This document shows, piece by piece, positions 1-26,959 of a stretch of DNA of 64,000 nucleotides (its first letter is position 1; every line of letters starts with the position of its first letter). Source of the stretch: Candidatus Eiseniibacteriota bacterium. GTDB taxonomy: Bacteria > Eisenbacteria > RBG-16-71-46. The notes under the pieces are model-generated. The model was not told the origin of the DNA, searched no databases, and was given only the letters and a program-made list of their open reading frames with translations. Location of the stretch: the NCBI GenBank assembly GCA_031364845.1, contig JANLWX010000007.1:64001-128000 (forward strand), given 5' to 3'. Position numbers and translations under genes: made by a program.

Positions 1-2660
1 GCGACGAGGCAGCCGAGCAGGCTCACGACCGTAATCGATCCGAGCTGAGCGTTCGCGGGCACCTGTGACAGCGTGAGGATGCCGAATCCGGCCGTCACCG
101 CGAGTGCGTTGACGAGGATGCCGGGTCCGGTCGCGGTGAGCGCGTCGAGCACCGCGGCCCCGTGCGGCTCGCCGCGCCGCGTGGCCTCGCGGTAGCGATG
201 GACCAGGTGAATCGCGAAGTCGACGCCGACGCCCAGCACCATGCTCGCGAACATCGAGGTCGCGACGCCGAGCGGCATGCCCACGACTCCCATCATCGCG
301 AACGTGCCCGCCACCGCGATGCCGGCCGGCGCCATGCACAGGATTCCCCAGCGCATCGAGCGGAACAGGATCGCGCTGACCGCGACGATCCCCAGCAGCG
401 AGGCGAGCAGCGAACCGACCTGCGAGCGCACGATCGCCTGGATCAATGCCTGGCTCACGGCGACGTCGCCGGCGAAATCGATCCGCATCTTCAAAGGTGC
501 CAGATGCTCGCGCTCATAGTCGCGAATCTCCGCCATGAGCTGCCGCGTGTCTCGGTAGTTCGCGTTCTTCAAGAATACTGTGATCAGCGCGTGGTCCAAC
601 TGCGGGGTTGCGACTTCGCCGACGCGCCCGGCGCCGAACACCGTCCGAAGTGCCGACCACAGCCAGCGCACGCGATCGGGATCGCTCGGAATGCCGCGCG
701 ATCCCGGTGACCGATCGCTCATGAGGAATTCAACGGTCGCGATCTGATCCGAGGGCCCGAGAACTCCGCCGACCGAAAGCTGCGACCGGGCGCGCACGAA
801 CTGTTCGAGCGAGTCGAGCGCCATGAGCAGCGACGGAATTGCGAGCCGCTGGGAGAGAAGCGCGAACATGAGGGTGTCGGACGGTTCCGGCATCAACAGG
901 AACTGCGCCGAGCCGTGGTAGAGCGGCGTCGTGACGGCGATGCGGCCGTCGCGGCGTTCGGCGCTTTCGACGACCGAGGACCAGTATGAAGGCTGGCCGA
1001 GTTCCGGCAATCCGGGGCGGCGCGACGCGGAGGATTGCCGGGCGGATCGTGGCAGGACGCTCACCCAGAGCGAGCAGCCGGTGAGCAAGGTGGGGTCGGC
1101 GATGAGGCTGTCCGGGAACAGCGTCACGTTGCCGTGCAGATCCGCAGGAGACAGCGTGCCCTGGATGAGAAGCGGGCGTCCCGTGTCGACCGACAGCAGC
1201 AGCCGATGCGTCCCGAAGAACTGCCGGTTGAAGTACTGCGTCGCCCGATAGAACGCGCTCGAGGGCGCGAACCCGCTGATCCAGCTGTCCTGGATCTCCA
1301 CCTTGCGGATCGCGAGCGGTGAAGCGAGCAGCGCGATCGCCGTGAGCGTCAGGGTGATCACGGGCCGCGCGCCGAGTTTTGCGATCCACGCGACCCATGC
1401 GCGCGGTGCCGCATCGCCCGCGTCACGCGTCCGTCCGGCGAGTGCGCGCGCCGGCAACAGCACCAGCAGTGCCGGGATCACGGTGAGTGTCCACACCATG
1501 CAGAACACGATGCCGGCCGCGGTGAAGATGCCGAACGCGCGGATCGGCGCGAGTGGCGACAGCGCGAATGCGAGAAAGCCGATCGCGGTGGTCCATCCGG
1601 TCGCCATCACCGGCAGGCTCGTCTCGTCGAGCGCCGCGCGAACCGCGGAGGTGATCGGTTCGTTCGGATGCGCGGCGACACGCTGGCGGTACGACGTGAA
1701 CACATGGATCTCGTCCGCGAGCCCCATCGACACGAGGATCACGGGCAGCACCGCCATCGTGAGATACACCGGCACGCCGAGCCAGCCCATGAGTCCGAAC
1801 ACGAACACCAGGCACGCGAGCGCTTCGCTCAACGGAAGCCAGGTCGCGGCAAAGCTCCTGAAGCTGATCAGGAACACGAGCCCCATGAACACGATCGCGA
1901 TCGGGAGCAGGCCGACGTGGCGGGCGATCGCCTCGCGCAGCCGGGCGATGGCGCGGGCGCCGTCGCCGGAAGCAGCGTCGAAGGCATCGCGCTGCGCACG
2001 GTGCTTCGAGATGCCGAGGTCTTCGAGAATGTGGACGCCGAGCAAGGCTTCCGCGACCGGCGCGCCGATCACGGTCACGTCGTGGCCCGCGGTGTCGGCG
2101 GCAGCGATCACCTCTCGGACGCTCGAGACGATCGCCGCGCGATCGGTGCCCGCATCGATCCCGGCGAGGATCGCGGCGGCACGCGCGTCGCGCGCGAGCA
2201 GCGTGCCCGACAGGAGTCCGATGTCGGCGATCTCGCCGCGCAATCGATCCATGTCGGCAGCCGTCGCCGGCAGCGGATCGAGGAGTTCGCGCCGGAGCAG
2301 CGTTCCCGGACGGAAGCGTTCGCTGGGTTCGGTCGCGAGGCTGCGCACGCTCGCCGAATCGATCCCGGGCAATTCCTGGAAGGCGTGCGTGAGGCGCGCG
2401 ATCAATGCCAGAGTGCGCGCGTCGTAGATTCCATCGGGGTTCCGCGAACGGACGACGATCACGAGCGGATCGTGTACGCCGAAAGCCTGACGCACCTGAT
2501 TGTCGAGCAGCACCGCGGGATCGCGCGGCGGGATCAGCGCGTGGCCGTCGGTGCGCAGGTGCAGTCGCAGCATCCCGGGCGCCACCGCTAGCGTGACGGC
2601 GAGCGCGAGAGCGAGGACCAGGCGCGGGCGCCGGATCGCGAAGTCGTGGAGATGCTTCAA
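1..2660 (-). CDS. MMPL/RND-family membrane transporter, 3' end outside window
   Basis: Absent from the ORF track because there is no in-window stop. I translated both ends by hand: TTG at 2660 gives MKHLHDFAIRRPRLVLALALAVTLAVAPGMLRLHLRTDGHALIPPRDP..., and the same frame reads PANAQLGSITVVSLLGCLV at the window edge. Hydrophobic blocks typical of MMPL proteins. Starts 9 nt after the upstream stop. Confidence 0.85.
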   Translation of the reverse strand, partial: MKHLHDFAIRRPRLVLALALAVTLAVAPGMLRLHLRTDGHALIPPRDPAVLLDNQVRQAFGVHDPLVIVVRSRNPDGIYDARTLALIARLTHAFQELPGIDSASVRSLATEPSERFRPGTLLRRELLDPLPATAADMDRLRGEIADIGLLSGTLLARDARAAAILAGIDAGTDRAAIVSSVREVIAAADTAGHDVTVIGAPVAEALLGVHILEDLGISKHRAQRDAFDAASGDGARAIARLREAIARHVGLLPIAIVFMGLVFLISFRSFAATWLPLSEALACLVFVFGLMGWLGVPVYLTMAVLPVILVSMGLADEIHVFTSYRQRVAAHPNEPITSAVRAALDETSLPVMATGWTTAIGFLAFALSPLAPIRAFGIFTAAGIVFCMVWTLTVIPALLVLLPARALAGRTRDAGDAAPRAWVAWIAKLGARPVITLTLTAIALLASPLAIRKVEIQDSWISGFAPSSAFYRATQYFNRQFFGTHRLLLSVDTGRPLLIQGTLSPADLHGNVTLFPDSLIADPTLLTGCSLWVSVLPRSARQSSASRRPGLPELGQPSYWSSVVESAERRDGRIAVTTPLYHGSAQFLLMPEPSDTLMFALLSQRLAIPSLLMALDSLEQFVRARSQLSVGGVLGPSDQIATVEFLMSDRSPGSRGIPSDPDRVRWLWSALRTVFGAGRVGEVATPQLDHALITVFLKNANYRDTRQLMAEIRDYEREHLAPLKMRIDFAGDVAVSQALIQAIVRSQVGSLLASLLGIVAVSAILFRSMRWGILCMAPAGIAVAGTFAMMGVVGMPLGVATSMFASMVLGVGVDFAIHLVHRYREATRRGEPHGAAVLDALTATGPGILVNALAVTAGFGILTLSQVPANAQLGSITVVSLLGCLV

Positions 2661-2669
2661 CGCGCGGCG

Positions 2670-3332
2670 TCAGCCCGAATGGGGGTCGTCGGAGCCGGGT
2701 ACTGCGCCGTTCGCCTGCGGCGGGAGATATCCGTGCTGCGCCATGCGCGCCCCGCTCGCGGCGTGATCCTCGTTCGCCATGGCGTGAACTCCGCCGGCAT
2801 CGCACCAGCGGTTGTAGAAGTTGAACAACGCGCACACGGTGATCGCGTCATAGACCGCCTCCTGCGACCATCCGGCCCGGACGACCGCATCGATATGTTC
2901 GCGATTCAAGTCCCAGGACGCGCGGTTCATCTGCTCGACGAATGTGAACAGCGCGCGGTCGGCCTCGGATATCGGTGCGGTGACGAGGTCCGCGAGCACT
3001 GCATCCACGCGTGCGCGATCGCCGAGCAGCTCCGCCGCGACCGCGGCGTGGCTGTTGAGTCAGAACGGGCAATGGTTGAGCCGCGACGTGTAGGCCGCGA
3101 TCAACTCGCGCAGCCCCGGTTCGAGCGGCGAGGGTCCGCGCATCACCTCGTGGGTGAAGCGCGACAGGTGCTGCGTGCGTTCGGGCTTGTAGGCGAACAG
3201 GAACATGATCTGCGGCACGTCCATGCCCGCGCGCGCGAGGCCCTCGATCACGCCGGCGTATGCGCCGGCCGGCGATTCGTGCAGCGCCGGCAGGAACATC
3301 GCTTCGCCCGTCGCGCCGGGATCGCCCTTCAC
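2670..3332 (-). CDS. AhpD/carboxymuconolactone decarboxylase-like peroxidase, probable selenoprotein (C-P-F-U, UGA at 3060-3062)
   Basis: ORFs 3060..3332 and 2670..3008 share a frame and read through as RELIAAYTSRLNHCPF*LNSHAAVAAELLGD. This is the AhpD E..S..N.CxxC...H motif with TGA at the second Cys. The GTG start overlaps the thioesterase stop (GTGA). 220 aa. Confidence 0.85.
3027..3054 (-). promoter_or_regulatory. Bacterial SECIS-like hairpin downstream of UGA 3060-3062
   Basis: mRNA reads UGA-CUCAA-CAGC-CA-CGCCGC-[GGUC]-GCGGCG-GA-GCUG. The apical loop begins with G, 17 nt after the UGA. Confidence 0.65.
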
Positions 3333-3757
3333 GAGACTTCCTCGTACGCGCGCGCCGCGCGCAGCAGCTCATCGGGAATCGGAGCCGGCACCATGCGGCC
3401 GTTCTCGCGGCGCATGAACGCGACCTGCTGCTCGCCGCGCGCGACCGGTTGTTCGCCCTGCGCCGTCGCGAGCAGATAGTCGAACTTCATCGTGAGCCGG
3501 TTCTGCGCGGCACCGCCGAAGTGCATGCGGACGATCACTTCGTCGAACGGTTCCAGCTCGCGCAGGTATTCGCACGAGCAGCGCGTGGTCACGAGCACGA
3601 GCCCGCCGCCGATCTCTTCGAGCATGTTCGGCGCGTGGTCGCGCAGGAACAACTCGCGGCAGCGGCCCTGCCAGCGGATGAAGTTCACGTAATAGACATT
3701 GCCGAGCAGGTTGGTCTCTTCGAACGCGACCACGTGACGCATTTCATAGCCCGCCAT
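3329..3757 (-). CDS. Enediyne PKS-associated hotdog thioesterase (SgcE10/CalE7/DynE7 family)
   Basis: FEETNLLGNVYYVNFIRWQGRCRELFL signature; 142 aa; overlaps the 3' end of pksE. Confidence 0.93.
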   Translation of the reverse strand: MAGYEMRHVVAFEETNLLGNVYYVNFIRWQGRCRELFLRDHAPNMLEEIGGGLVLVTTRCSCEYLRELEPFDEVIVRMHFGGAAQNRLTMKFDYLLATAQGEQPVARGEQQVAFMRRENGRMVPAPIPDELLRAARAYEEVS

Positions 3758-6700
3758 CGTCCCTCCTTGCGAGCACCGCCATCACCGTGGGTTCCGTTGC
3801 GTCCTGGATCGAGGCGAGGTAGGTCGCGACCCGCAGCGGGCCCGACGCGAGCACCGTCCAGCCGTCGGCGCCGGTCTCGACCAGCACTAGCGGCTGATCG
3901 CCCGCCCAGCCTGCCTTGCGCAGACACTCGTGCGCTGCCCACACCCGCGTGGCGGCCGGACCGAGTTCGCCCGCCGACTCGCTCGCCATCCGTTCCGCGA
4001 GGCCGAAGCGCCGCGGTCCGAGCAGATCGCGCCATTGCAGTTCGGTGCGCGCGATCACACCGGCGACGTCGCAGCCGATCGGCCCGCAGCCGCCGATCGC
4101 GAACGTCAGCGTGCCCGCATGCGATGACGAAACCGATTGCGCGGGCTCGGACGGAAGCGAAGGCTTGCCGTTGGGGTCGCGGTGCACGGCGATCGCGCGG
4201 CCAAAGGCGAGGCTCATCGCGTGTTCGCTGTTGCCTCCGCGGGTGGCGTGGCCGTTCGCCGCGAGCGCCACGCGCACGGCCGAGCCCGGAATCAACTCGG
4301 CGACGCGCCGCTCGACGTAGGGTCCGAGCAGCGGCAGCGGCCACGCGCCGGCGCGCGCGACACCCGGCATCGCCTTGAGTTCGAGTCCTTCCCAGCGTTC
4401 GCGCACGCGGCCGCCGGCGTCCGCGATCTCGAGGTCGTAGACGAACCGATCCCCGAGCCGCGACCGCTCGCGCGCGTGCACGGTCCACGGCGCGCCCGCG
4501 CCCAGATCGCCGGGGACGATGCGCGCGACCGCGGTCGGCAGCACCGTCATGTGGGGGATGCACGCCTGGATGCCGTGGATCGCGGCGTCGCGCGCGCCGG
4601 GATCGCCGAGCACGAGGTCGGCGGGCACGTAAGGCCCGAACCACTCGGGCCGGGTGTCGGTCGCGATCTCGACCACGCATTCGGTCGCTCGCAGCACACG
4701 GTAGTTCAGCACGCGCTGGAAGCGGCCGCTCTGGAACAGCATGCCGCCGTAGAGATCGCGTTCCGGATCGAGCGGCAGCGGTCCGTTCAAATCGTCACGA
4801 TCGGCGAGGTGTTCCAGGCCCGCGGGCCGCGCGCCGAACACGCAGCGCGCCTCGAAGTGATCGACCGCGAAATCCGATTCGGACGAACGCAGCACGACGT
4901 CGACGCTGCCGTCCTCTCGCATGAGCGCCGCCACGCGCAGCGTGCACTCACCACCCGCGGGCACGGTGATCGGGCGATGGAACGCGACGCGCTCGAACAC
5001 CGGAGCATTTGATTCGCCGGCGAGCGTCATCGCGACCTGTGCGATCGCTTCGAGCCCCATCACGGCCGGCAGCAGCATCACGCCGCGATAGACGTGGTCG
5101 CGCAGATAGGGATCGCTCTCGGGCGAGAGATCGGTGTCGACCACCAGCTCGATGCCGGGATAGTGGACCGCGATCCGCTCGATGAACCGCCGCAGCGGCA
5201 TCGGCGGCTGCTCGAGTGCCAGCGTCGGTAACTCGCCGATGCGTCCGGCGACGATCACCGACGAGCCCGGCAACGGTGCGCGCAGCAGGCGCGACAGCAT
5301 CCCGATGCCGGCCTCTGGCGCGATCGGTGTGATGCCTTCGCGCATCAGCGCATCCAACCGCCCGAGTCGCTCGCCCATGCCGGTGCCGGACCACACCGAC
5401 CACTCCACCGACAGGCAGCGGCAGGCAGCGTGCTCGGTCTGGAAGCGCTCGACGAAGCGCGTGAGCCATTCGTTCGCGAGGCCGTAGTCCGCTTCGCCGC
5501 GTAGTCCGGTGCGCGCGATGATCGAGCCGAACGTGACGAACAGTTTGAGCGTGCCGGGATCGATCGCCGCGAGCACGTTGCGCGCGCCGTCGAGTTTCGT
5601 GCGCAGCGTGCGCTCGACGATGGCTTCAGTGAGCGCGCTCAGCGGGCGCGGTTCGTTGATGCCGGCGCCGTGCAGCACCGCGACGACCGGGCCGAGACGC
5701 TGCTCGATCGAGCGCACTGCGTCGCGCACGGCTTCCGCGTCGGTGACGTCGGCCGCGGCGTAGTACGTCGTCACACCCGCGGCCGCGAAGCGCGCGAGGT
5801 TCGCCGCCAGCGCGGGATCGCTGCCGGCATCGGAGCGCCCGATCAGGCCGAGCTTCACGCCGTATTCGCGTGCGAGTGCCAGCGCGCATTCGGCCGCGAT
5901 GCCTTTGCCGCCGCCGGTGACGAGCATCACGTCGTCCTTCGCGAGCGGCGGAGCGTGCACGGCGGCCGTTTCCGTGAGCGGCGTCATCACCGGTTCGTGG
6001 CGCCGCCCATCGCGGTCGTAGCGCGCCTCGTGATAACCGAGTGCCGCGTTCGCTTCGGCGACGATCCAGGCGACGGCGTCTTTGTGGTCGTACGGCACAT
6101 CCACCACGCACGTCGTGGTGTCGCGCGATTCGAGGTGCAGGCTGCGCGCGAACGCGCCGCCGCCGCCGCCCTGCTGCACGACCACGAAGCGCGCGCCGCG
6201 GTCCGCCATCGCGAGCCGCGCGCCTTCGAGCAGCCGCGCGATGTCGCGCGCATCAGGCTCCGCGGCGAGGCACACGACGACTCCGCGGCCGGTGCCCTCG
6301 GCGTGCAGTGCGCGTTCGAGGTCCGCCGCGATTGGATGCTGAGCGTCGGCGAGCACGCGCCATTCCGCGGGGCCGGCGGGCTTCGGACGTGACGGGCGCG
6401 GGCGTTCGACTTCGCGCACGACGAACGGACGCACCCAGGGACCGACGCCTTCGGCGATGCGGCGCGGCGCTTTCGGCGCGCCGCCGGTGCGCAGCTCGGC
6501 CAGCGCGATCGCGAGTTCGGCGACCGTGGCTCCGGCATAGCTCGCGGGATCCGCGGGCGCGGGCAAGCCGAGGCGCCGCGCGCCGTCGACTGCCAGTTGC
6601 CCGACGGTGATCGAGTTCAGGTGCAGGTCACCGAGCAGGCGATCATCGTCACCGACCGCGGATACCGGCAGCTCGACCTGTTCGGCGACGAGCCGCCGCA

Positions 6701-9608
6701 CGACTTCGAGCACAGCCGCGGGGTCGTCGGCGGACTCGGCGCCGTTGCCGTGCGCGGCGCCGTTCGTGGCCGCCGGTTCGTGATCGCGATCGACGGTTGC
6801 CGTGGCGCCGCTCGTCGTGTGCGCCGCTACGGCGTGCGTGCCTGCGTCCGAAGGCAACGGCGCCTGCTCGCACGGATTCGCGAAGAAGCTCAGCGGGCGA
6901 TCGAGGTCGAACGCGCGCGCGAAACGCCCGGCGAACAACGGCTGCGGATCGACCGCGCCGCCGAGCGCCCACACCGCGCCCGTCGCGCGCAGCAGGCCGG
7001 CGATCGATTCGCTGCCGGCGTCGAGTGCGATCGCGGGGGCGGGGCCGAGATCCGCGACCAGTCCGCTCAGCACGTGCCCTGGACCGACCTCGATCCACAA
7101 ATCCACATTGCGCGCATGGCTCACGGCTTCCACGAAGCGCACCGGATGCGTGACCTGGCGACACAGCAGCTCTCGCACGTCGTCGTCGCGCCCGAGCGGA
7201 GTACCGCTCACGGTCGAGAGCACGCGGCGCTCGACCGGTTCGAATCGTTCGCGATCGAGCTGCGCGCGCAGCGCCGGTTCGGCCGCGGCCACGAGCGGCG
7301 AGTGGAACGCATGCGATACCGCGAGCGCGGTCGCCGGAATGCTCCGCGCCCGCGCGATCTCGACCACCGCGGTGACGGCGTTCGCTTCACCCGCGATCAC
7401 GGTGCGGCGCGGGCCGTTCAAGCCCGCGATCACCACCGCATGTCCCGCGATCAGAGTGCCGACTTCTTCAGCCGTCGCGGCGAGGCTCGCCATGGTTCCG
7501 TTCGAAGCCGCGAGATCCGCCATCGCGCGTCCGCGCGCGGCGGCGATCCGCACCAGCGCGTCCGCGTCGAACACCGAGGCCCAGTGGCATGCCGTGATCT
7601 CGCCGAGGCTGTGGCCCACGGCCACCTCGGCGCACACGCCGAGCTCATCGAGCAGCCGAAGTGCTGCGAGTGAATTCGTGACGATCGCGGGCTGCGCGAT
7701 CTGGGTCGCGGTCGTGTCGGTGGTCGTTGCCGCTTCCGCCGCGACACGCGTTGCGACCGCGTCGTACAAAGGCCGCAGCGACTCGAACCGCCGCGCCCAC
7801 AGACCGCCTGCGACGTTCGAGGGCGCGCCCTGGCCCGTGAACAGAAATCCGATGCGCGGTGACGTGCCGCCCAGTGCGCCCAGGCTGATGCCGCGCGCGA
7901 CATCGAGCCGTACCTCGACGCCTTCGGCGAGCCACGCATCCAGCACACCGAGGCGTTCGTCGAGTTCGCCTGGCGTCGAGGCGACCACCGCCGCGCGTCG
8001 CGCATCGGCGCCGGCCGTTGCCTTCGCCGCCAGCGAGTTCTGCAACGTGCACGCGACGTCCGCCATCTCGGCCAGGGAGAGCCGGCCGGCCAGCGCGCGA
8101 AGCCGCGCGATCTGATCGCGGAGCGCCTGCGTGTCGGCGCCCTCCAAGAGAAACAACTCGGCATCCTGCGGACTGGAGATCAGCGCTCGCTCATCGTCCG
8201 TGAGCGCCGTGCGGCGTTCCGGGGTCGCGCTCTCGATCACGACGTGCGTGTCGATCCCGCCGAAGCCCATCGCGCTCACCGCGGCGCGCAGCGGCATGCC
8301 GGACGGCCACAACTCTCCCGAGCGCGGCGTTCTGAGATCGGCACGGTCGCGCACGAGACGCGGGTGCGGATCGCGCTGTCCCGCGAGCGGCGGCAGCACC
8401 TGCGCGCGCACCGACATCGTCGCCTTGATCAGCCCCGCCACGCCGGCCGCGGCCTTGGTGTGGCCCATGTTCGCCTTGATCGATCCGAGTGCGGCGGCGG
8501 GTGCGGTGCCGGTGCCGCGCGCGCGCAGGATCACATCCAACTCGGTGAGGTCGCCGACTTCGGTTCCGGTCCCGTGTCCTTCGAAGTAGCCGATCGTTTC
8601 CGCGCCGAAGCCCGCGCGGCGATAGGCGCGCTCGAGTGCGAGCAACTGGCCCGAAGCTTCGGGCCGCGTCATGCCGCCGCTGCCGTCCGAAGCCACGCCC
8701 CAGCCGCGGATCACACCGTGGATGCGCCGTCCTTCGGCGCGCGCCTGATCGGCGCGCATCAGCACCACGAAACCGCAGCCTTCGCCGGGCCAGAAGCCGG
8801 TGGCGCGGGCGTCGTAGACGCGCATGTCCTCGCGCGCGAGCACGCCGACGCGCGAGAACCCGACCAGTTCGAACGGATCGAGGCTCAGATCGACGCCGCC
8901 CGCGAGTGCGAGGTCGAGATCGCCCGCCGCGAGCGCCGAGCATGCGGTGGTGACCGCGAGCAGCGACGAGGCGCACGCGCCATCGACGGTGTAGCCGCCG
9001 CCGTTCAGGTCAAAGTGATTGCAGATGCGTCCGGCGATCGTGTTCGACAATCCGCCGGCAAGCGACTCGCCGCCGACGGCCGGGAACGGAGCCTTGTAGC
9101 GCGTCTCGAGCGAGGCGAGGAACGCCTGGCGGCGCTCGGGCGCCCAGTCGCTCTCCGCGAGTGCGGCGTCGACCACGCGCCGCACGTAGGGCCAGCGCAA
9201 ACGCAGCGTGTTCGCGCGCGAGAATTCGCCGGTCAGCGTGTTGCCGACCAGCACTCCGGTCATCGCGCGCGGCAGGCCGTGTCCGTCGGCGAAGCCCGCG
9301 TCGGCCAGCGCCTGATCGGCGACGTCGAGCGCCAGCCAGTGCGCGAGGTCGACCTCGCGATACGTGGCGCCGGCGGTGCGGAAGCGCACGCGATCGAACT
9401 CGTAGCCTTCGATCACCGCGGCCTGCGTGGTCGTCACCGAGTCCGACAATCCGGCGTCCGCGTGATAGTCCTCGATCCGCAGGCGCTCGGCCGGCATGCG
9501 GCGGAACGCGCGGCGCTGCGCGAGCGCGTTCTCCCACAGTTCGGCGGGGGAGCGCGCATCGGGGTAGCGGCAGCCCATGCCGATGATCGCGATCGCGTGA
9601 TCAGGCAT
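3744..9608 (-). CDS. pksE: Iterative type I enediyne polyketide synthase (KS-AT-ACP-KR-DH-PPTase)
   Basis: 1954 aa. KS: DGACASSL, EGHGTGT, GHTKAAAG. AT: GHSLG and HAFH. Internal ACP: DLHLNSITVGQL. KR: TGGGKGIA and DYGLANE. DH: HVYRGVMLLP and DAAIHGIQAC. C-terminal PPTase: SSSHA, GCD, RVWAAHECLRKAG. This domain order is diagnostic of PKSE. Confidence 0.95.
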   Translation of the reverse strand: MPDHAIAIIGMGCRYPDARSPAELWENALAQRRAFRRMPAERLRIEDYHADAGLSDSVTTTQAAVIEGYEFDRVRFRTAGATYREVDLAHWLALDVADQALADAGFADGHGLPRAMTGVLVGNTLTGEFSRANTLRLRWPYVRRVVDAALAESDWAPERRQAFLASLETRYKAPFPAVGGESLAGGLSNTIAGRICNHFDLNGGGYTVDGACASSLLAVTTACSALAAGDLDLALAGGVDLSLDPFELVGFSRVGVLAREDMRVYDARATGFWPGEGCGFVVLMRADQARAEGRRIHGVIRGWGVASDGSGGMTRPEASGQLLALERAYRRAGFGAETIGYFEGHGTGTEVGDLTELDVILRARGTGTAPAAALGSIKANMGHTKAAAGVAGLIKATMSVRAQVLPPLAGQRDPHPRLVRDRADLRTPRSGELWPSGMPLRAAVSAMGFGGIDTHVVIESATPERRTALTDDERALISSPQDAELFLLEGADTQALRDQIARLRALAGRLSLAEMADVACTLQNSLAAKATAGADARRAAVVASTPGELDERLGVLDAWLAEGVEVRLDVARGISLGALGGTSPRIGFLFTGQGAPSNVAGGLWARRFESLRPLYDAVATRVAAEAATTTDTTATQIAQPAIVTNSLAALRLLDELGVCAEVAVGHSLGEITACHWASVFDADALVRIAAARGRAMADLAASNGTMASLAATAEEVGTLIAGHAVVIAGLNGPRRTVIAGEANAVTAVVEIARARSIPATALAVSHAFHSPLVAAAEPALRAQLDRERFEPVERRVLSTVSGTPLGRDDDVRELLCRQVTHPVRFVEAVSHARNVDLWIEVGPGHVLSGLVADLGPAPAIALDAGSESIAGLLRATGAVWALGGAVDPQPLFAGRFARAFDLDRPLSFFANPCEQAPLPSDAGTHAVAAHTTSGATATVDRDHEPAATNGAAHGNGAESADDPAAVLEVVRRLVAEQVELPVSAVGDDDRLLGDLHLNSITVGQLAVDGARRLGLPAPADPASYAGATVAELAIALAELRTGGAPKAPRRIAEGVGPWVRPFVVREVERPRPSRPKPAGPAEWRVLADAQHPIAADLERALHAEGTGRGVVVCLAAEPDARDIARLLEGARLAMADRGARFVVVQQGGGGGAFARSLHLESRDTTTCVVDVPYDHKDAVAWIVAEANAALGYHEARYDRDGRRHEPVMTPLTETAAVHAPPLAKDDVMLVTGGGKGIAAECALALAREYGVKLGLIGRSDAGSDPALAANLARFAAAGVTTYYAAADVTDAEAVRDAVRSIEQRLGPVVAVLHGAGINEPRPLSALTEAIVERTLRTKLDGARNVLAAIDPGTLKLFVTFGSIIARTGLRGEADYGLANEWLTRFVERFQTEHAACRCLSVEWSVWSGTGMGERLGRLDALMREGITPIAPEAGIGMLSRLLRAPLPGSSVIVAGRIGELPTLALEQPPMPLRRFIERIAVHYPGIELVVDTDLSPESDPYLRDHVYRGVMLLPAVMGLEAIAQVAMTLAGESNAPVFERVAFHRPITVPAGGECTLRVAALMREDGSVDVVLRSSESDFAVDHFEARCVFGARPAGLEHLADRDDLNGPLPLDPERDLYGGMLFQSGRFQRVLNYRVLRATECVVEIATDTRPEWFGPYVPADLVLGDPGARDAAIHGIQACIPHMTVLPTAVARIVPGDLGAGAPWTVHARERSRLGDRFVYDLEIADAGGRVRERWEGLELKAMPGVARAGAWPLPLLGPYVERRVAELIPGSAVRVALAANGHATRGGNSEHAMSLAFGRAIAVHRDPNGKPSLPSEPAQSVSSSHAGTLTFAIGGCGPIGCDVAGVIARTELQWRDLLGPRRFGLAERMASESAGELGPAATRVWAAHECLRKAGWAGDQPLVLVETGADGWTVLASGPLRVATYLASIQDATEPTVMAVLARRDDGGL

Positions 9609-10554
9609 GGGCGAACTCGCGCTCTTGAGTGAAGTGGTTCTGGATGCGCTGGCGCCACACTTCGAAGGCCGGAGCGTCGCCTTCGCTCTCGAGATTCTGG
9701 CGCGCGCGCTCGGTGATCGCGGCGGCCTCGGGAGCGGTCATTCCGCACAGGATCTCGCACGCGAGGTCTGTGCCGGGCGCGGGATTCCCCGCGCGCACGC
9801 GGGCCTGCGCGGCGAACGCCGCACCCTGCGCGACTTCGGGGAGAAATGTGCCGCACGCCGCACGCAGTGCCGTCAATCCGGTGCGATCGATGCCCCCCGC
9901 GTATGTGGCGGCGAGGCCCGCGCCCGCCCACAGATCGCTGCGGCGCGCGGGATCGAAGCGCGCGATCGTGCGCGCGATGCGCGAGGGCTCGGCGCCTTCG
10001 ACGAACCACAGACTGCGTCCGAGGCCCTGATCGAACACACGCTGCGCATGGGCGCTCAACTGCTCCGGTCGCCGCTGTTCCGTGATGGTTCGCGGCCAAT
10101 GGAAGTATCCGTCGTGGAAGCCGAGGCCGTCGATCACGAGCCAGCGCAGCACCGGATCGTCCTCGTTTTTCATGAAGCGGGCGACGTTGCCGCCGAGCCG
10201 CGCCGCGGCCCAGCCGGCACCGATGTACACCATGTAGGCGTGGGGCGCGCCCGGGCCTTTGAGCAGCGCGCGCCACTGGCTGTCCCGCCACGGCATTACG
10301 GTGTCGAGCAGCGCGAGGCCCATCGCGGCACCTTCCCAGGCGAAGCCCGCCATCTCGCGCTCCACCCCCGCGAGGCGCTCGGGCAGCCGGTCGGCGCGCG
10401 TGACATCGAGGGCGGCGTGGTATCCGTCGACGAAGGTTCCGCCGATGGCTTCGAGGCGCTGGCGGACCGCGGGCGCGGCCCCGCGAAAACCGCGGCGCTC
10501 GAAGCGAGTCTCAGCGGCGGAAATGCCGAACACGAGCCTGCGAAGCGCGCGCAC
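9601..10554 (-). CDS. unbL: DUF1702 / enediyne cassette protein E3 (UnbL)
   Basis: Motifs GFAWEGAAMGL, YIGAGWA, WLVIDGLGFHDGYF, FDQGLGRSLWF, DLWAGAGLAATYAGG. GTG at 10554 with GGAGG 9 nt upstream; 8-nt overlap with pksE. Confidence 0.9.
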   Translation of the reverse strand: MRALRRLVFGISAAETRFERRGFRGAAPAVRQRLEAIGGTFVDGYHAALDVTRADRLPERLAGVEREMAGFAWEGAAMGLALLDTVMPWRDSQWRALLKGPGAPHAYMVYIGAGWAAARLGGNVARFMKNEDDPVLRWLVIDGLGFHDGYFHWPRTITEQRRPEQLSAHAQRVFDQGLGRSLWFVEGAEPSRIARTIARFDPARRSDLWAGAGLAATYAGGIDRTGLTALRAACGTFLPEVAQGAAFAAQARVRAGNPAPGTDLACEILCGMTAPEAAAITERARQNLESEGDAPAFEVWRQRIQNHFTQEREFAHA

Positions 10555-10826
10555 GAGGGAACGCCTCCATGATCGAACGTGCCCGGTGAGTGTGTCCCGC
10601 GCGTGATTCAAGACAGACGGCGGCGGTGTTTGGGGTCGAAGCGGCTGGCGGCCCAGGCACGAGTGTGCTTCGCACGAAGTTTCCGCCCCCATGCGCATGA
10701 ATGTCAAGGATTTCCACGTTTCAAGCCGCCCCCGGTTGGCGTAAGCTGTCGCTGCCTCGCCTAGCATGAACCGGGCGGACCTGTAGCCCGGTCCGGGCCT
10801 GGGGCTCGCCGCGCTCCGGAGCAACC

Positions 10827-12790
10827 ATGAACGCATTCGTCCTGCGCACGATCGTGATGGCCGTGATGCTCGCCGCGGGATCGTTCTGGATCCGGCACAA
10901 CGACCGGCCGGTCGTGGAAGCGGGCGTTCGGTTCGAGGAGATCTCCGAGCGCGCCGGCTGCCGCAACGTGCACACGAAAGTCGAGCTGTCGCCACGTTTC
11001 GCGAACATCATGCCGTGGCTGGCTTCGGTCGGCGCGGCCGTTACCGCGGCGGACTACGATGGCGACGGTTGGATCGACCTCTACCTCACGAACTCCGGCC
11101 GCGGCGACGCCAATCGGCTGTTCCGCAATCGCGGCGACGGGACCTTCGAAGAGCGCGCGGCCCAGAGCGGTGTGGCGTGCGGCAACGCCGAAGGCGCGTG
11201 CATGCACGCGGTGTTCGGCGACATCGACAACGATGGCGATCCGGACCTCTACGTCGCCAAGTGGGCCGCCGAGAACCAGCTGTTCGAAAACCAGGGCGAC
11301 GGAACGTTTCGCGACGTGACCGCGCGCGCCGGAGTCGGGCACTGGGGCTACGCGAACTCGGCGACGTTCGTCGACTTCGATCGCGACGGGCGGCTGGATC
11401 TGCTGGTCGGCAACTATTTCGCAGAGCAGGTCATCGATCCGCGCACCGGTGCGCTCGCGCGCTCCGATCTGTGGAATCCGGTTTCGAGCCGCGTGATGCA
11501 CTCGACGTTCACGCACGCCGACAACGGCGGCCGCACGCTGCTCTATCGCAACCGCGGCGACGGCACGTTCGAGGACGTTGCGGAAGCGTCGGGACTCGAG
11601 TTCCGCGGATGGACGCTCGCGGTCGGAGCGGCCGATCTCGACAACGACGGCTGGCCCGACCTCTATCTCGCGAACGACTTCGGCCCCGACGAGCTGTACT
11701 TCAGCACCGGCAGCACGGAGCAGCCGCCGCGCTTCCGGCGTGTCATCGACACTTCCGGCCATCCGGGGATCGGCGACGACTGGTGAAGGGCATGAACGTC
11801 GACTTCGGCGATGTCGATGGCAACGGCTATCTCGACATCTACGTCACCAACATCTTCGAGCGGCGCTACAAGAGTGACGAAGGCAACATGCTGTGGCTCA
11901 ACTTCGCGCGACCGGGAACGGCAGGGGAGCGGCGGTTCGTGAACGTCGGGCTCGAGAGCGACGTCTACGACGGCGGCTGGGGCTGGGGTGCCAAGTTCCT
12001 CGACGCGAACGACGACGGGCTGCTCGACATCCTGGCACTCAACGGCTTCGTCAAAGGCGATCCCGACCACACCTACTGGTATGCGCTGCAGGAGATGGTG
12101 ACGCAGATGAAGAACAACTCGGCCGATGCCGCGGACTGGCCGGCGATGGGGCCGCGCGATCTGTCGGGCGGCCAGTCGAGTCGGCTATTTCTACAACAGG
12201 CGAAGGCCGCGCGGCCTTCCGGCCGGCGCCCGCCTGGTGATGGCGGTCCGCGCTTCGCCGAGCTGGCGACTTCGGCGGGCATCGACGATCGCGAGAACGG
12301 CCGCGGCGTCGCGGTGCTCGACTTCGACAACGACGGGGCACTCGACCTGTGCATCGCGAACCAGGGTGGACCGTCGCTGCTTTATCGCAACCGGCTTCAG
12401 CGCACCGCGACCGGTCCGCACTGGATCGGCCTTGCGCTGCAAGGTCGCCCGGATCTCAAGGGCTCGCTCGGCGCGGGTGCGCAGGTCAGCACCGCCGGAG
12501 CGATCGGCGCGCGCGCGGTGCTCGTGAGCGGCGATCGCACGCAGACGCTCGAAGTCTCAGGCGGCACCGGCTTCGCATCGCAAAGCGATCCGCGCCTTCA
12601 CTTCGGCATCGGCGAGCGCACTCGCGCCGACCTGCTGACCGTGCGCTGGCCGAGCGGACGCGTGCAGACCTTCTCGGGCGCCGAGCTCGACGCATGCCTC
12701 GGCGGCTACGCGCGGCTTGTCGAAGGCGGGGCACTCGAGCCGCGCGCCGGATCGCCGGCGGGCACCGCGGTGGCGAGCGTGACCCGATGA
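10827..12790 (+). pseudogene. unbV: ASPIC/UnbV (E4, CRTAC1-like FG-GAP repeat) protein interrupted by a 1-nt frameshift at ~11784-11787 (true lesion or assembly error)
   Basis: The N-half (10827..11786) has DxDxDG repeats and ends GIGDDW*. The C-half continues in another frame as KGMNVDFGDVDGNG...GWGWG...AIGARA...GGTGFASQSDPRLHFGIG...VRWPSG (ASPIC/UnbV domain). Adding one base gives a single 654-aa ORF. Confidence 0.85.
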
Positions 12791-13806
12791 GCACGCCGCC
12801 ACGTTCACGCAGCCGCTCGGGCTTCGTATGGACGGTGCTCGCGATCGTGGGAGTCGCGGCGATCGCCGTCGTCGCCGTGCGGCGCGGCGGACTGCTCGAC
12901 CTTCCCAAAGTTCCCGACGGCGTGACCGCGGAGTCCGCGGGCCTCGCAAATCTCGATCAACTCCGGCAGCGGGCCGCGGAACTGGAAGCCGCGCAACGTG
13001 GCGACTCCGACGCAGCGCTGGTGGCGGCGAGCACCGGGCTCAAGGCGGTGGCCGATGGTGAGGTTGGCCCCGGGCTCGATTCACTACGCCACGCGCTGCG
13101 CCTCGCTCCCGACGACCTCGTGCTCGGCAATGCATATCGAATGGCAGTGCTGAAGCTGCGCCGCGCGGCGATGAAGGACGCAGCCGCACGCGCGGCGCTG
13201 GCCGGGCGTCTGCCGCCGGCGATCGAGCACGAGCCGATCGCATTTCTGGAGACGCTGCGGCGCGAGCATCCGAGCCGCGAGGTCACGCTGCAGCTCGCAC
13301 TCGCATGGGTCGACGAGTTGATGCTGTTCGGAGCGCTCGAGATCAAGGCACCGGCGAGTGTCGAGTCGGTGACGCTTTTGAGCGGCATCCTCGAGCAGGA
13401 GCCGTCGTACGTTCCCGCCCTGTTCGGGCGCGGGCTCAACTATCTGCACCGGCCTTCGCGGCTGGTGTGGCCGGAGTCAAAGAAGATGGCGCCCGACGCT
13501 GCGAGCCGCGACATCGGGATGTGCGTGGCGATCGGCCGCAAGATCGGCGGCGGTTCGCCGCAACTGGTCGGCACGCTCGCGCTCACACTCGGCGACGCCT
13601 ACGCCCGCGAAGGGCGCTTCGAGAACGCGCGCTCGTGGTGGCAGATCGCGCAGAACAGCGGAGGCGGAGCCGAACTCGGAGCCGCGGCGCGCCGGCGCTT
13701 CACGTGGGGCGATCGCGACGTGCCGGACCGCCTCGAGCAGGAGCTGGAGACGCGCATGTCGGACCTCGACCATCCGCTTTCGGATCTGGCGGTGATATGG
13801 CAGTGA
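12787..13806 (+). CDS. Membrane-anchored TPR-like protein of unknown function
   Basis: ATGA overlap with unbV; N-terminal TM segment (FVWTVLAIVGVAAIAVVAV); TPR-like helices such as ALRLAPDD and LGDAYAREGRFENARSWWQ. Confidence 0.75.
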   Translation: MSTPPRSRSRSGFVWTVLAIVGVAAIAVVAVRRGGLLDLPKVPDGVTAESAGLANLDQLRQRAAELEAAQRGDSDAALVAASTGLKAVADGEVGPGLDSLRHALRLAPDDLVLGNAYRMAVLKLRRAAMKDAAARAALAGRLPPAIEHEPIAFLETLRREHPSREVTLQLALAWVDELMLFGALEIKAPASVESVTLLSGILEQEPSYVPALFGRGLNYLHRPSRLVWPESKKMAPDAASRDIGMCVAIGRKIGGGSPQLVGTLALTLGDAYAREGRFENARSWWQIAQNSGGGAELGAAARRRFTWGDRDVPDRLEQELETRMSDLDHPLSDLAVIWQ

Positions 13807-14720
13807 GCGCGGCGACTTCCACGGCGGCGCCGGTGCGCGTCGTCATCCCGACGCTCAAGGATCCGCGCGTGATGATCGCGTTGGCACTCACGGTGTGGAC
13901 CACGTTCGGGCAGACGTTCCTCTATTTCGACCGCGATCTGAGCCAGATCGCCGTGGCATTGGTCGCCGGGTGCGTGCTCGACATGCTGTTCGCGTTCGTC
14001 CTGCTGCGCCAGGTTCTGGTTCCGATCAGCGCCTACATCACCGGACTCTCGATCGCGATCCTGCTCGAGAGCTACGACTGGCGTGTGTTCGCGATCGCCT
14101 CGGCGTGGGGGATCGCGTCCAAGTATCTGCTGCGCGCGGGCGACCGGCACTTCTTCAACCCGTCCAACTTCGGCATCGTCGCGGCATTGGTACTGATGCA
14201 GGGCGTCGCGACCGTGGCACCCGGATCGCAGTGGGGAGGGGATTACCGCGTCGCGTTCCTGATCCTCGCGCTCGGCATGATGATGATGCGCCGCTTGAAG
14301 CGGCTCGACCTCGCGTTCGCTTGGCTCGGCGGCTACGTGGTGATGAGTCTTCTGCGCGTGGCGCTCGGGCAGGGCGGGCTGATCTTCGCGCTCGGTCCTT
14401 TGACCGGTGCCGAGTTCGCGCTGTTCACGTTCTCGATGCTGCCCGATCCCAAGACCAGCCCGCCGACTTCGCGCGGGCGCATCGCGTGGGGCCTGACGAT
14501 CGCGGTGATCGACGGCGTCCTGCGCCTGCTCGAGGTGCGCTACTCGATGTTCTACGCGCTGTTCGCGATGTGCGCGTTGCTGCCGGCGTTCCACGCGGTG
14601 GCGGCGGCGCGCGGCGTGCGCGAATCCGATCCGTGGCGCACGGTGGTCGCGGTGTGGGGGCGCCCGCGCGGTGGACCTGCGGCGGACACTGCTCGACGCG
14701 ACGTGCGCCGGCCCGACTAG
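13797..14720 (+). CDS. unbU: Enediyne cassette protein E5 (UnbU; RnfD/NqrB-like membrane protein)
   Basis: Motifs KDPR, SAYITGLSIAILL, ASKYLLR...HFFNPSNFGI, FTFSMLPDPKTSP; polytopic membrane protein; start at ATG 13797 or GTG 13803. Confidence 0.85.
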   Translation: MAVSAATSTAAPVRVVIPTLKDPRVMIALALTVWTTFGQTFLYFDRDLSQIAVALVAGCVLDMLFAFVLLRQVLVPISAYITGLSIAILLESYDWRVFAIASAWGIASKYLLRAGDRHFFNPSNFGIVAALVLMQGVATVAPGSQWGGDYRVAFLILALGMMMMRRLKRLDLAFAWLGGYVVMSLLRVALGQGGLIFALGPLTGAEFALFTFSMLPDPKTSPPTSRGRIAWGLTIAVIDGVLRLLEVRYSMFYALFAMCALLPAFHAVAAARGVRESDPWRTVVAVWGRPRGGPAADTARRDVRRPD

Positions 14721-16795: not shown

Positions 16796-17031
16796 GAGAC
16801 CTCCATCGCGCGGTGGATGTTGCCGGACCGTCTCGATCATCGCAGGGCCGGCACACCCCGGGCAACGGAAAGCTGGGGAGTTCTCGCCCCGCGCGCCCCG
16901 GCGCTGATACACTTGCGGCTGGCGGATGCGCATCCCAATCGGACACCTGAGGGTACGCGTCCGCCCCCGATCGTGTCGGCGCCTCCCGCATCCCGGCCCC
17001 GCACCCACTTCAAGGATGTTGGAGGCCATCG

Positions 17032-26328: not shown

Positions 26329-26795
26329 GCGGCTTCGATCTCCTCGATCTCGGCGGTCCAGCGCACGGAGACCGCATTGCGGAGCGTCGCCGCGGTCGGG
26401 CATTTCTCCTGGTGCCGCGCGAGCGCGCGGTCCACCGTCTCGCGCGTGCCGGACGGGATGCGCAACCGGTAGTGGACGACGATCTCTGTAAGCACCGGCA
26501 TTCCCTCGCGCACCTCGTGCAATCCTTCGGCCTCGGCCGCGATCGCGTCGTTCGGAAGCTTGACCTGCCGCACATCCAGCGCGGCTTTCAGGGTTCCGAG
26601 CATTCAGCCCGCGGTGGCCGCGACGATGAAGTCGACGGGCAGCGGAAGCTCGCGCTCCGGATCGAGCCGGAACAGCTCGCGAACCGCGCCATGCACTCCG
26701 AAGTCCACTTCGGGGCCGGATTCGAGATGCGCGCGGCGATGCAGCGGCCCCAGCACTTCGAGGCGTGAGCGCGACGTATAGAAAGGTTCGGTCAT
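26325..26795 (-). CDS. OsmC-like protein, probable selenoprotein (UGA at 26604-26606)
   Basis: ORFs 26604.. and 26325..26603 share a frame and join as PVDFIVAATAG*MLGTLKAAL...HQEKCPTAATL. The TGA occupies the first catalytic Cys of the OsmC/Ohr fold. ATG 26795 with AGGAG; 156 aa. Confidence 0.85.
26564..26592 (-). promoter_or_regulatory. Bacterial SECIS-like hairpin downstream of UGA 26604-26606
   Basis: CCU-GAAA-GCCGCGC-[UGGAU]-GUGCGGC-AGG; loop has G at position 2 and lies 25 nt after the UGA. Confidence 0.6.
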
Positions 26796-26959
26796 GAAGT
26801 CACTCCTGGCGAGAGGTGGCGCGGCAAAGATAGGGAGAACGGTGGACACGCGCCAGCGCAGTCGGGTTCGAACGCCATCGATTAGAGCGCGTGTTGAACT
26901 TGCCTCGCATGCCGCCAAGTATGCTAGCTTTTCCGCCCCTGTCGTTTCCGGAGGTATCC

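Follow-up and report, generated by a model that had tools for sequence, protein, structure and literature searches.

A family of AhpD-like selenoproteins (COG2128/TIGR01926), carrying selenocysteine (Sec) in a CxxU motif, has been predicted from the Sargasso Sea and GOS metagenomes (excerpts of PMC1088965 and PMC2398784), and a table of a 2026 review lists an 'AhpD-like protein, TIGR01926, CxxU' (excerpt of PMC13188914). In these excerpts, the sole gene colocation mentioned is with genes for Prx-like selenoproteins. Bmp8, the tetrabromopyrrole debrominase of the bmp cluster, also has the CMD/AhpD fold and is encoded in a natural-product cluster; according to an excerpt of a review, it strips a bromine after thioesterase off-loading, via cysteine oxidation (PMC5577590). 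The polyketide synthase/thioesterase (PKSE/TE) pair of the enediyne cassette has also been described (PMC9992847, excerpt).

Here we report on a window, the whole 64,000-nucleotide stretch of DNA that was analysed, in which an AhpD-like gene stands fourth in a polyketide operon of an uncultured Ca. Eisenbacteria-related lineage. We consider it probable that positions 2670–3332 form a single, unbroken gene whose product is a thiol/selenol oxidoreductase of the AhpD fold with Sec at the UGA at 3062–3060, located within a PKSE operon; this estimate covers identity, Sec decoding and operon membership jointly, and the role of the enzyme is weighed apart from it. The features of the locus are as follows.

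3..2660, minus strand: MMPL/HAE3 RND-type transporter, translated from a TTG that lies 9 nt past the end of the AhpD gene
2670..3332, minus strand: AhpD-like gene (TIGR01926 / PF02627), 220 residues with a GTG start, from profile matches and an AF2 model
3002..3054, minus strand: longer alternative hairpin with apical loop GAGC and an MFE of -30 kcal/mol
3033..3048, minus strand: short candidate SECIS hairpin, 6 bp, whose GGUC loop opens 17 nt past the UGA
3060..3062, minus strand: in-frame UGA, predicted U91, the second position of C88-x-x-U91
3329..3757, minus strand: hot-dog thioesterase (4HBT_2; E10-type), whose stop overlaps the AhpD start and whose orthologues adjoin PKSE elsewhere
3744..9608, minus strand: iterative type I PKS of the PKSE type, 1954 aa, KS-AT-KR-DH detected
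9601..10995, minus strand: DUF1702 protein (E3/UnbL-type; PF08012, 392 bits), first gene of the operon
11015..12790, plus strand: UnbV/ASPIC FG-GAP protein (E4-type; PF07593, 72.5 bits), divergent from the operon
13305..14720, plus strand: membrane protein resembling E5/UnbU, judged from its conserved place and from tblastn against other cassettes

An AhpD-like gene with an in-frame UGA

The minus-strand frame from 3332 to 2670 was translated into 220 residues with a single internal TGA at 3062–3060, giving the sequence ...LNHCPF-U-LNSH... with the UGA at residue 91, and it terminates at the TGA at 2672–2670. The translation agrees with the first-pass annotation, which had read two apparent ORFs as one frame broken by TGA at the second Cys of the AhpD CxxC motif and had expected standard annotation to yield two fragments; the ORF listing indeed splits the gene into 3060–3332 (90 aa) and 2670–3008 (112 aa). 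The start candidates are the GTG at 3332–3330, preceded by GAGGAAG at 3343–3337, 5 nt upstream, and an alternative ATG at 3299. The read-through protein scored above the cut-offs of TIGR01926 (NCBIfam; 94.6 bits, cut-off 81.8) and PF02627 (43.8 bits, cut-off 23), and far under those of the selenoprotein-specific models NF041238 and NF053654, which places it outside those two subfamilies.

The AF2 model of the protein (pLDDT 88) found its best Foldseek matches (E about 2e-8) among AhpD-fold proteins, namely the Cys-type AhpD and peroxidase-related structures 3c1l (Mlr4105), 6k40, 2prr and 2pfx, with which it shares the all-helical AhpD fold (TMt 0.77–0.83). The stretch R-E-L-x..C-x-x-C-x-x-S-H aligns residue for residue with Deinococcus radiodurans AhpD (6k40), and the E-x11-C-x-x-C-x3-H motif of the solved Cys-type proteins aligns with the protein reported here, in which E76 and H95 complete E-x11-C-x-x-U-x3-H around C88 and U91. 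In contrast to the Cys-type proteins, Sec takes the place of the second Cys, identity amounts to only 24–28%, and the operon contains no AhpC/peroxiredoxin partner gene; AhpD of Mycobacterium tuberculosis (1gu9) was a weak match (E 0.15–0.2). With the AhpD-like selenoproteins, on the other hand, the protein shares an HMM score above cut-off, Sec in place of the second Cys of the motif (CxxU) and Cys homologues, and a candidate hairpin lies 3' of the UGA. It belongs to this catalogued 'AhpD-like, CxxU' family (TIGR01926/COG2128), which the first-pass annotation had rightly called established, and the selenoprotein itself is ordinary, not new, and split in two by gene callers.

Comparison with related genes indicates that the in-frame TGA almost certainly encodes Sec. 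The column of U91 is occupied by Cys in 13 of the 14 aligned full-length homologues, among which E76 and H95 are invariant, and by Trp in homologue P0009. TGA fills this column in 28 related genes, which come from several phyla: 14 of 16 genome loci of related AhpD genes, the metagenome contigs L128 and L129, and 12 of 14 close matches from an Acidobacteriota sample, the other two carrying TGC. The Cys/TGA pairs that the first-pass annotation proposed to look for do exist at this column. Six pairwise comparisons of the sequence 3' of the UGA gave dN/dS values of 0.17–0.42 (0.17–0.24 within the PKSE-linked trio, and 0.38–0.42 against the stand-alone copy L042), and by this measure the downstream frame is under purifying selection. 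A search of the genome for Sec machinery, also proposed earlier, recovered a complete set, comprising selA (549.8 bits), selB (339.6 bits) and selD (356.8 bits, carrying a TGA of its own), all exceeding their cut-offs, and a tRNA-Sec with anticodon TCA (63.4 bits). A contig from sequencing run X2 (903 nt, spanning 2577–3479) showed 11 differences, none at the TGA codon, and a contig from run X3 covers the codon with no difference listed there, both being Logan contigs rather than raw reads, in which minor alleles could go unseen. Because the codon recurs in related genes and in contigs from the metagenome and from other runs, the TGA is neither a chance nor an assembly feature.

The candidate SECIS hairpin is conserved, yet it stands out only weakly in statistical terms, and the dinucleotide-shuffle, RNAalifold and column-sliding results do not separate it from coding and composition effects. 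Its position directly 3' of the UGA is conserved family-wide, and the G-loop hairpin that the first-pass annotation described 17 nt past the UGA is present with the loop GGUC; however, its stability did not exceed that of dinucleotide-shuffled sequences (z = 0.16), so that the short hairpin, taken alone, is within chance. Across 17 sequences the hairpin was 89% paired, with C-G to U-A double changes in L114, L115 and L121. RNAalifold on 17 sequences retained four pairs with a covariation term of zero, and when the pairing partners were slid by +3 columns the covariation was similar (0.243 vs 0.211), which is what Ala-codon repeats would produce. A MAFFT alignment of 28 sequences gapped L121 and L024, leaving pairs uncounted, and a codon-anchored synonymous shuffle was used instead. 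In this test 23 of the 28 Sec forms folded better than synonymously recoded versions of themselves (mean z -0.68; window z -1.65), and the two Cys forms serving as controls gave z of +0.8 and +1.5, a weak trend among related sequences. An Rfam scan of 2600–3400 (E up to 10) returned three chance-level matches (E 4–6), none of them SECIS-like. A fold like the alternative extended hairpin was predicted in the PKSE-linked relatives L128 and L129 as well.

The enediyne-type operon and its relatives

Gene order and spacing support the placement of the AhpD-like gene inside the transcription unit that, in this enediyne-type cassette, runs E3-PKSE-TE-...-MMPL. The operon reads E3(DUF1702)-PKSE-TE-AhpD(Sec)-MMPL, with AhpD as the fourth of five genes and with E4 and E5 divergent; E3/E4/E5/E/E10 are the names of the genes of the minimal enediyne PKS cassette in the enediyne literature. 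Adjacent genes overlap by 8 nt (E3/PKSE), 14 nt (PKSE/TE) and 4 nt (TE/AhpD, where the TE stop TGA at 3331–3329 and the AhpD GTG at 3332–3330 combine as GTGA), and a 9-nt gap separates AhpD from MMPL. This overlap and gap support the earlier assignment of the gene to the pksE operon. A scan of 2300–3900 revealed nothing that resembles a promoter or a terminator. The MMPL gene runs 73 nt past the start of the window, encodes 910 aa in full and is followed by a convergent gene.

Like the minimal enediyne cassette, the locus unites DUF1702, UnbV/ASPIC, a membrane protein, a KS-AT-KR-DH PKS and a hot-dog TE; it differs in the host phylum and in the Sec-AhpD gene inserted between the TE and the MMPL exporter. 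The PKS has 46–55% full-length identity to four other cassette PKSs from the same phylum, and Pfam detected neither an ACP nor a PPTase domain in it alongside KS, AT, KR and DH. The window belongs to the phylum of the Ca. Eisenbacteria MAG G017; of 206 genomes of this phylum that were searched, 5 contained an enediyne-type cassette, an occurrence that is new.

To be found directly after the TE is exceptional for an AhpD gene. This was the case in 2 of 23 other PKSE/TE loci, both from the closest metagenome relatives (L128 and L129), which share the gene order TE-AhpD(Sec)-MMPL as well as the TGA and the overlap at GTGA, at protein identities to the window of 77–78% for PKSE, 82% for TE, 74–79% for AhpD and, in L128, 73% for MMPL. 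In other cassettes MMPL often directly follows TE with no AhpD between them, which points to TE-MMPL as a recurrent module, new here, that received the AhpD insertion. Around the 16 closest-relative AhpD loci, PKSE, TE and MMPL were found within about 7 kb at none, and DUF1702 was found in none of three tested genomes with Sec-AhpD orthologues; the neighbours of stand-alone copies are heterogeneous. The linked trio forms a clade (support 100/99), and a stand-alone copy from Ca. Eisenbacteria branches as its sister (90/93), suggesting that the AhpD gene was recruited into the cassette once. A distant CMD-type match in L105, obtained by tblastn with the AhpD query, is separated by about 18 kb from a gene resembling E3, at a locus with no full-length PKSE and no TE, and was judged unrelated.

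The placement of Sec-AhpD in a PKSE operon is unusual and limited to a small group of related uncultured bacteria. As far as the sampled sequences go, Sec-AhpD is no general part of PKSE pathways, and the link holds only in the three-sequence clade. The earlier proposal of a selenoenzyme built into a PKSE pathway stands with respect to operon membership but not beyond this clade, and the suggested tally of AhpD between TE and MMPL went against it, 21 of the 23 other loci having no such gene and the closest relatives being stand-alone. What is new is a selenoprotein gene embedded in an enediyne-type operon and, by the substitution rates given below, kept there under selection.

Possible roles of the AhpD-like enzyme

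The AhpD-like enzyme is predicted to be a selenol/thiol reductase, for which protection would be the likeliest function. A resident stand-alone Sec-AhpD of the Ca. Eisenbacteria lineage would have been recruited once between the TE and the MMPL exporter; the selenolate of U91 would attack an electrophile or an oxidised substrate such as a hydroperoxide, a disulfide or a sulfenic acid, C88 would resolve the adduct as a selenenylsulfide, E76 and H95 would act as a proton relay, and a cellular thiol reductant would recycle the enzyme. This chemistry is modelled on the mechanism of M. tuberculosis AhpD. In a protective role the enzyme would remove peroxides or oxidised species to which an oxidation-prone polyene/polyyne product gives rise. 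Provided that Sec is real, we judge a protective partner of the exporter to be the leading role, at somewhat short of an even chance, followed by a passenger as a serious contender and by true tailoring, including dehalogenation, as improbable.

As a passenger, the gene would encode a general antioxidant Sec-AhpD that is co-transcribed from its position between TE and MMPL and is functionally unrelated to the polyketide, a reading that is possible though not favoured. It fits a Sec-AhpD family that is widespread with heterogeneous neighbours, that is present in genomes without the cassette, and that in G017 and G953 occurs together with the cassette on different contigs. Against it, the insertion, the GTGA overlap and the TGA persist in relatives whose flanking genes have only 73–82% protein identity, and dN/dS is 0.16–0.37; these observations indicate that selection has retained the gene, although a general function under selection would leave the same pattern.

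The proposal that Sec-AhpD is a dedicated tailoring enzyme, namely a deiodinase-like reductive dehalogenase or a different reductase that relies on a selenol, with a halogenated or oxidised polyyne or polyene intermediate freed by the thioesterase as its substrate, is unlikely. The deiodinase idea of the first-pass annotation does have a genuine precedent, since the AhpD/CMD fold performs reductive dehalogenation in the Bmp8 debrominase (PDB 6ohi/6ohj), which matches the protein in sequence (E 1.1e-5) and structure (Foldseek E 1.5e-4, TMq 0.60); moreover, the AhpD gene directly follows and overlaps the TE gene, and it evolves about as fast as PKSE, TE and MMPL within the trio. However, Bmp8 ranked only 17th in Foldseek and is Cys-based, the sequence search placed the protein much nearer to generic peroxidase-related proteins (E 1.4e-15), a scan of 15 ORFs next to the operon turned up no halogenase domain, most other PKSE/TE loci lack AhpD, and its closest relative is a stand-alone gene. 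The enzyme may still work in a Bmp8-like manner.

That the cassette of this clade gained a selenium-dependent AhpD-fold enzyme acting on the polyketide itself also appears doubtful, if a shade less so. Such an enzyme could be a selenol reductive dehalogenase of a TE-released halogenated polyyne, convergent with Bmp8 and with deiodinases, which are selenocysteine enzymes, or a selenol reductase that would keep the reactive product reduced until its export by MMPL. Either would be the first step in the making of a polyketide to rely on a selenoenzyme. Should the enzyme act on the product, a natural-product pathway would depend on the supply of selenium, and attempts to express it in a heterologous host whose Sec decoding does not match would fail without any outward sign. 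In practice, a cluster-mining pipeline that takes the TGA for a stop will list a pair of hypothetical fragments and overlook the enzyme.

Very improbable is a gene that is not a selenoprotein, through a nonsense mutation, an assembly error, two separate ORFs or a UGA read as Trp or Cys: the weak hairpin statistics and the Trp of P0009 are outweighed by the shared TGA column across phyla, the Cys at the catalytic position of Cys forms, the low dN/dS after the TGA, the complete Sec machinery, the contigs from other runs, and the use of TGA as the ordinary stop of TE and of the AhpD gene itself.

In the literature library searched, no paper connected an enediyne/PKSE cluster with a selenoprotein, and none contained both of the terms selenoprotein and enediyne, in keeping with the first-pass statement that no such case was known. 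Enediyne and carboxymuconolactone decarboxylase occur together in one paper, which by its title deals with the comparative genomics of Pseudomonas.

Reading frame and decoding of the AhpD-like gene

The first-pass annotation had joined two apparently separate ORFs into one AhpD-like frame, broken by TGA at the second Cys of a CxxC motif, and translation of the minus strand from 3332 to 2670 agreed with this. The gene and its candidate recoding elements are as follows.

3332–2670, minus strand: AhpD(Sec) gene, a single frame of 220 codons
3048–3033, minus strand: candidate SECIS hairpin, 6 bp, loop GGUC
3054–3002, minus strand: alternative extended hairpin, the MFE fold of the window

The internal TGA at 3062–3060 (residue U91, within LNHCPF-U-LNSH) is the sole in-frame stop ahead of the terminal TGA at 2672–2670, and a plain ORF listing splits the gene into pieces of 90 and 112 aa, as had been anticipated for standard ORF calling. 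Two starts are candidates. The GTG at 3332–3330 is preceded 5 nt upstream by GAGGAAG and shares GTGA with the stop of the upstream thioesterase gene, while an ATG at 3299 is included because it agrees with the start position of many homologues; whichever start applies, no more than 29 nt separate the gene from the thioesterase. The MMPL transporter gene starts with TTG 9 nt past the AhpD stop, and this spacing and the GTGA overlap, both described earlier, were read in the sequence.

The complete Sec machinery that the earlier reading called for was found in the source genome assembly (233 contigs, 97% complete), with selD at 356.8 bits, selA at 549.8 bits, selB at 339.6 bits, and tRNA-Sec at 63.4 bits (anticodon TCA by ARAGORN). 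The selA and selB genes are on contigs other than C122, which carries the remaining two.

Contig C122, 15304–16230: selD (loci L001/L014), with one in-frame TGA and itself a selenoprotein gene
Contig C122, 15045–15138: tRNA-Sec, ~170 nt from selD

Close relatives in species-representative genomes comprised 16 loci (49–61% identity), with TGA at the Sec column in 14; one of the others is a fragment aligning from residue 88 only, and one does not reach the column. Among 401 evenly sampled Acidobacteriota genomes, 13 yielded 14 close matches, and the predicted Cys/TGA pairs appeared there as 12 TGA and 2 TGC forms, one of the latter from genome G760. Back-translated search patterns are unable to match TGA at Cys, so the genome scan had no bias towards Sec forms. 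Nei-Gojobori dN/dS past the UGA was 0.17–0.24 within the linked trio (the window and metagenome loci L128 and L129), 0.38–0.42 against the stand-alone copy L042, and resembled dN/dS before the UGA. Two sequencing runs from a study of the probable source sample provided contigs (rather than reads) over the codon: one of 903 nt from run X2 spanning 2577–3479, with 11 differences from the window and none at 3060–3062, and one from run X3 over 2992–3113, also identical at 3060–3062. The TGA is not an assembly error. A TGA=Trp code was ruled out, since TGA terminates both the thioesterase and the AhpD gene themselves. Together, the machinery, the TGA-bearing relatives, the selection past the stop, the contigs of other runs and the use of TGA as a normal stop make it very likely that UGA 3062–3060 is decoded as Sec.

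Between the window and L128 or L129, dS before the UGA (0.40–0.48) was about half of that after it (0.82–0.87), a pattern absent between L128 and L129; possible causes are chance or constraint exerted by the thioesterase end that overlaps or adjoins this part. Contigs of runs X2–X4 that depart from the window at 3050–3051 carry other AhpD-like genes, also with TGA after C-x-x, so several Sec-AhpD organisms share the habitat.

Protein family and the putative SECIS element

The read-through protein matched the NCBIfam model TIGR01926 'peroxidase-related enzyme' (94.6 bits, cut-off 81.8) and passed Pfam CMD/PF02627; its scores against the AhpD-related selenoprotein models NF041238 and NF053654 were far under their cut-offs. 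An AlphaFold2 model built from a 15-row alignment was all-helical (mean pLDDT 88, pTM 0.84), and its top Foldseek matches were AhpD-fold proteins (3c1l, 6k40, 2prr, 2pfx; E ~2e-8). The R-E-L-...-C-x-x-C-x-x-S-H pattern of D. radiodurans AhpD aligns with the protein column for column. Among 14 homologues picked from the best 120 of 1334 matches, E76 and H95 are invariant, C88 is retained in 12, and position 91 is Cys in 13 and Trp in one (P0009), so that the TGA occupies the best-conserved redox residue of E-x11-C-x-x-C-x3-H, a signature whose name and residue roles come from the M. tuberculosis AhpD literature. That full-length database proteins are Cys forms is expected, because gene callers truncate Sec forms.

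The annotation had treated CxxU AhpD-like selenoproteins as established, in line with three sources: a prediction from Sargasso Sea data (27 sequences; PMC1088965), the GOS survey, with 299 selenoproteins and 902 Cys homologues of AhpD-like 1 (COG2128; PMC2398784), and a 2026 review table listing the family under TIGR01926 (PMC13188914). The AhpD protein therefore adds a member to a family already known. Its setting in a PKSE (enediyne-type polyketide synthase) operon, which the annotator did not know to have been described, was likewise not found in the literature searched, a body with subscription papers largely outside it. We regard the selenoprotein as ordinary and its biosynthetic context, retained in evolution within an uncultured phylum, as unusual.

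The G-initiated hairpin loop noted 17 nt after the UGA is present. In most relatives the hairpin occupies an equivalent codon-anchored position, with 89% of cells paired across 17 sequences; its covariation score of 0.211 was reached in 5 of 500 column shuffles, and double synonymous changes preserving pairing (C-G to U-A) occur in loci L114, L115 and L121. This evidence was weakened by the controls. A +3-column shift of the 3' partners gave 77.5% pairing and a similar score of 0.243, as successive alanine codons (GCN) would predict; RNAalifold kept four pairs and no covariation term; and the MFE of the window hairpin equalled that of dinucleotide shuffles (z 0.16). Under gene-by-gene shuffling of synonymous codons, 23 of 28 Sec forms were more stably folded than the recoded versions (mean z −0.68; the window z −1.65, with 5% of shuffles as stable) and the Cys forms folded worse (z +0.82 and +1.48, one being that of G760), a trend in the right direction but weak, from related sequences and a Cys control of n=2. 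A fold like the extended hairpin was predicted in the operon-linked L128 and L129. A SECIS-like element 3' of the UGA is present and plausible, although these statistics fall short of proof.

Proteins of ~330 aa from Terriglobia (P0002–P0008, and locus L047 at 7001–7657) begin just past the CxxU of a first AhpD domain and continue into a second, Cys-type domain; apparently they are tandem Sec-AhpD/Cys-AhpD proteins, cut at the TGA by gene callers so that the N-terminus is missing. A complete tandem form is P0009 (385 aa), whose domain 1 carries CFFC and whose domain 2 has Trp at the Sec column.

The operon and its relatives

Upstream of the AhpD gene are the following genes.

3329–3757, minus strand: hot-dog thioesterase (TE)
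3744–9608, minus strand: polyketide synthase KS-AT-KR-DH, 1954 aa (PKSE)
9601–10995, minus strand: DUF1702 protein (E3)
11015–12790, divergent from the operon: UnbV/ASPIC protein (E4)
13305–14720, divergent from the operon: membrane protein (E5)

These genes match the set of the minimal enediyne cassette (E3/E4/E5/E/E10); Pfam detected no ACP or PPTase domain in the PKS. The operon junctions are overlaps of 8, 14 and 4 nt and then the 9-nt gap, 2300–3900 contains no site resembling a promoter or terminator, and a convergent gene lies beyond the MMPL gene (910 aa). The unit is therefore E3-PKSE-TE-AhpD(Sec)-MMPL, bearing out the assignment of the AhpD gene to the pksE operon.

Genomes with DUF1702 above cut-off numbered 5 of 206 in the phylum (the source genome included), 5 of 401 in a Myxococcota sample and 9 of 401 in an Acidobacteriota sample; enediyne-type cassettes marked by E3 do occur outside actinomycetes, though rarely. 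Several E3/E4/E5 sets had no nearby PKSE (G973 at 1.09 Mb, G796, G972, G646). The 16 loci of close AhpD relatives had no PKSE, TE or MMPL gene within ~7 kb, the neighbours of stand-alone copies were heterogeneous (35 ORFs of 14 loci), and DUF1702 was found in none of three tested genomes with Sec-AhpD orthologues. Genomes G017 and G953 have both the cassette and a Sec-AhpD gene, on separate contigs.

Twelve other PKSE/TE loci came from genomes (G164, G101, G017, G053, G471, G500, G600, G918 with two, G642, G953, and G973, found using TE as query). No AhpD/CMD gene followed TE in these 12 by tblastn, or by Pfam in 10 of them (29 ORFs in four loci of the phylum; 24 of 66 listed ORFs in six further loci), L089 (G600) and L144 (G973) being checked by tblastn alone; the genes after TE were housekeeping genes, regulators, ABC/MacB/HlyD transporters or MMPL. 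A metagenome scan with TE gave 11 loci. In both of the closest, L128 and L129 (TE 82%), AhpD comes next after TE, its TGA falls at the Sec column and the two genes overlap by GTGA as in the window; MMPL follows in L128, and L129 ends ahead of that point. The AhpD gene was absent from the remaining nine, of which L135 has only 519 nt past TE. The link to PKSE pathways drawn in the first-pass annotation thus held for the nearest relatives and failed in 21 of 23 other loci; a general link across clusters is not supported by these comparisons.

A same-strand MMPL gene comes directly after TE in 7 of the 23 other loci (L128, L086 in G471, L144 in G973, L130, L131, L133, L138), and TE-MMPL would appear to be an export module that recurs in PKSE cassettes. 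With AhpD after TE in only 2 of 23, its gene looks like an insertion into this module. The TE-MMPL order occurs in two or more phyla as well as in metagenomes, and the G471 transporter is fused to a LolA-like domain. In a 40-row AhpD tree (L113, which duplicates L045, was left out, as were L026, L056 and L057, which are partial), the linked trio forms a clade (support 100/99), its sister is a stand-alone Eisenbacteria copy (90/93, under the star threshold), and Sec and Cys forms are interspersed. Our reading is one recruitment in one lineage, kept while flanking genes diverged to 73–82% identity. Operon membership is supported and conserved, in the clade of three only.

Proposed mechanism and role

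The Sec reading is strongly supported and the family known; the function we infer. Beside the observed fold, motif, Sec column and operon membership, we propose that the U91 selenolate would be the attacking residue, C88 would resolve its adduct as a selenenylsulfide, E76 and H95 would relay protons, and a thiol reductant would recycle the enzyme. No AhpC/peroxiredoxin partner gene is present in the operon. The AhpD gene adjoins an exporter and follows the thioesterase that would off-load the product of a polyene/polyyne pathway prone to oxidation; a protective role fits this position and is tentatively favored, at slightly under even chances. Somewhat less probable is a co-transcribed passenger with a general antioxidant function.

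A tailoring role on the polyketide, for example dehalogenase-like, is the least probable of the three. An iodinated intermediate has reportedly been found for enediyne cassettes. One genuine fold precedent is the debrominase Bmp8 (PDB 6ohi/6ohj; E 1.1e-5, Foldseek rank 17), which, according to a review, removes bromine after thioesterase off-loading via cysteine oxidation (PMC5577590), but this similarity is ten orders of magnitude weaker than that to generic peroxidase-related proteins, and no halogenase was found among 15 neighbouring ORFs scanned. Beyond the cassette, no halogenase or obvious further tailoring gene was seen, and a 773-aa ORF at 14717–17038 had no Pfam match. Farther along the window are genes for an M1 peptidase with a FlgD-Ig domain (17032–19785), a GH1 glycosidase (21513–22838), a squalene/phytoene synthase (25243–26403) and a long UbiA prenyltransferase (26794–28824).
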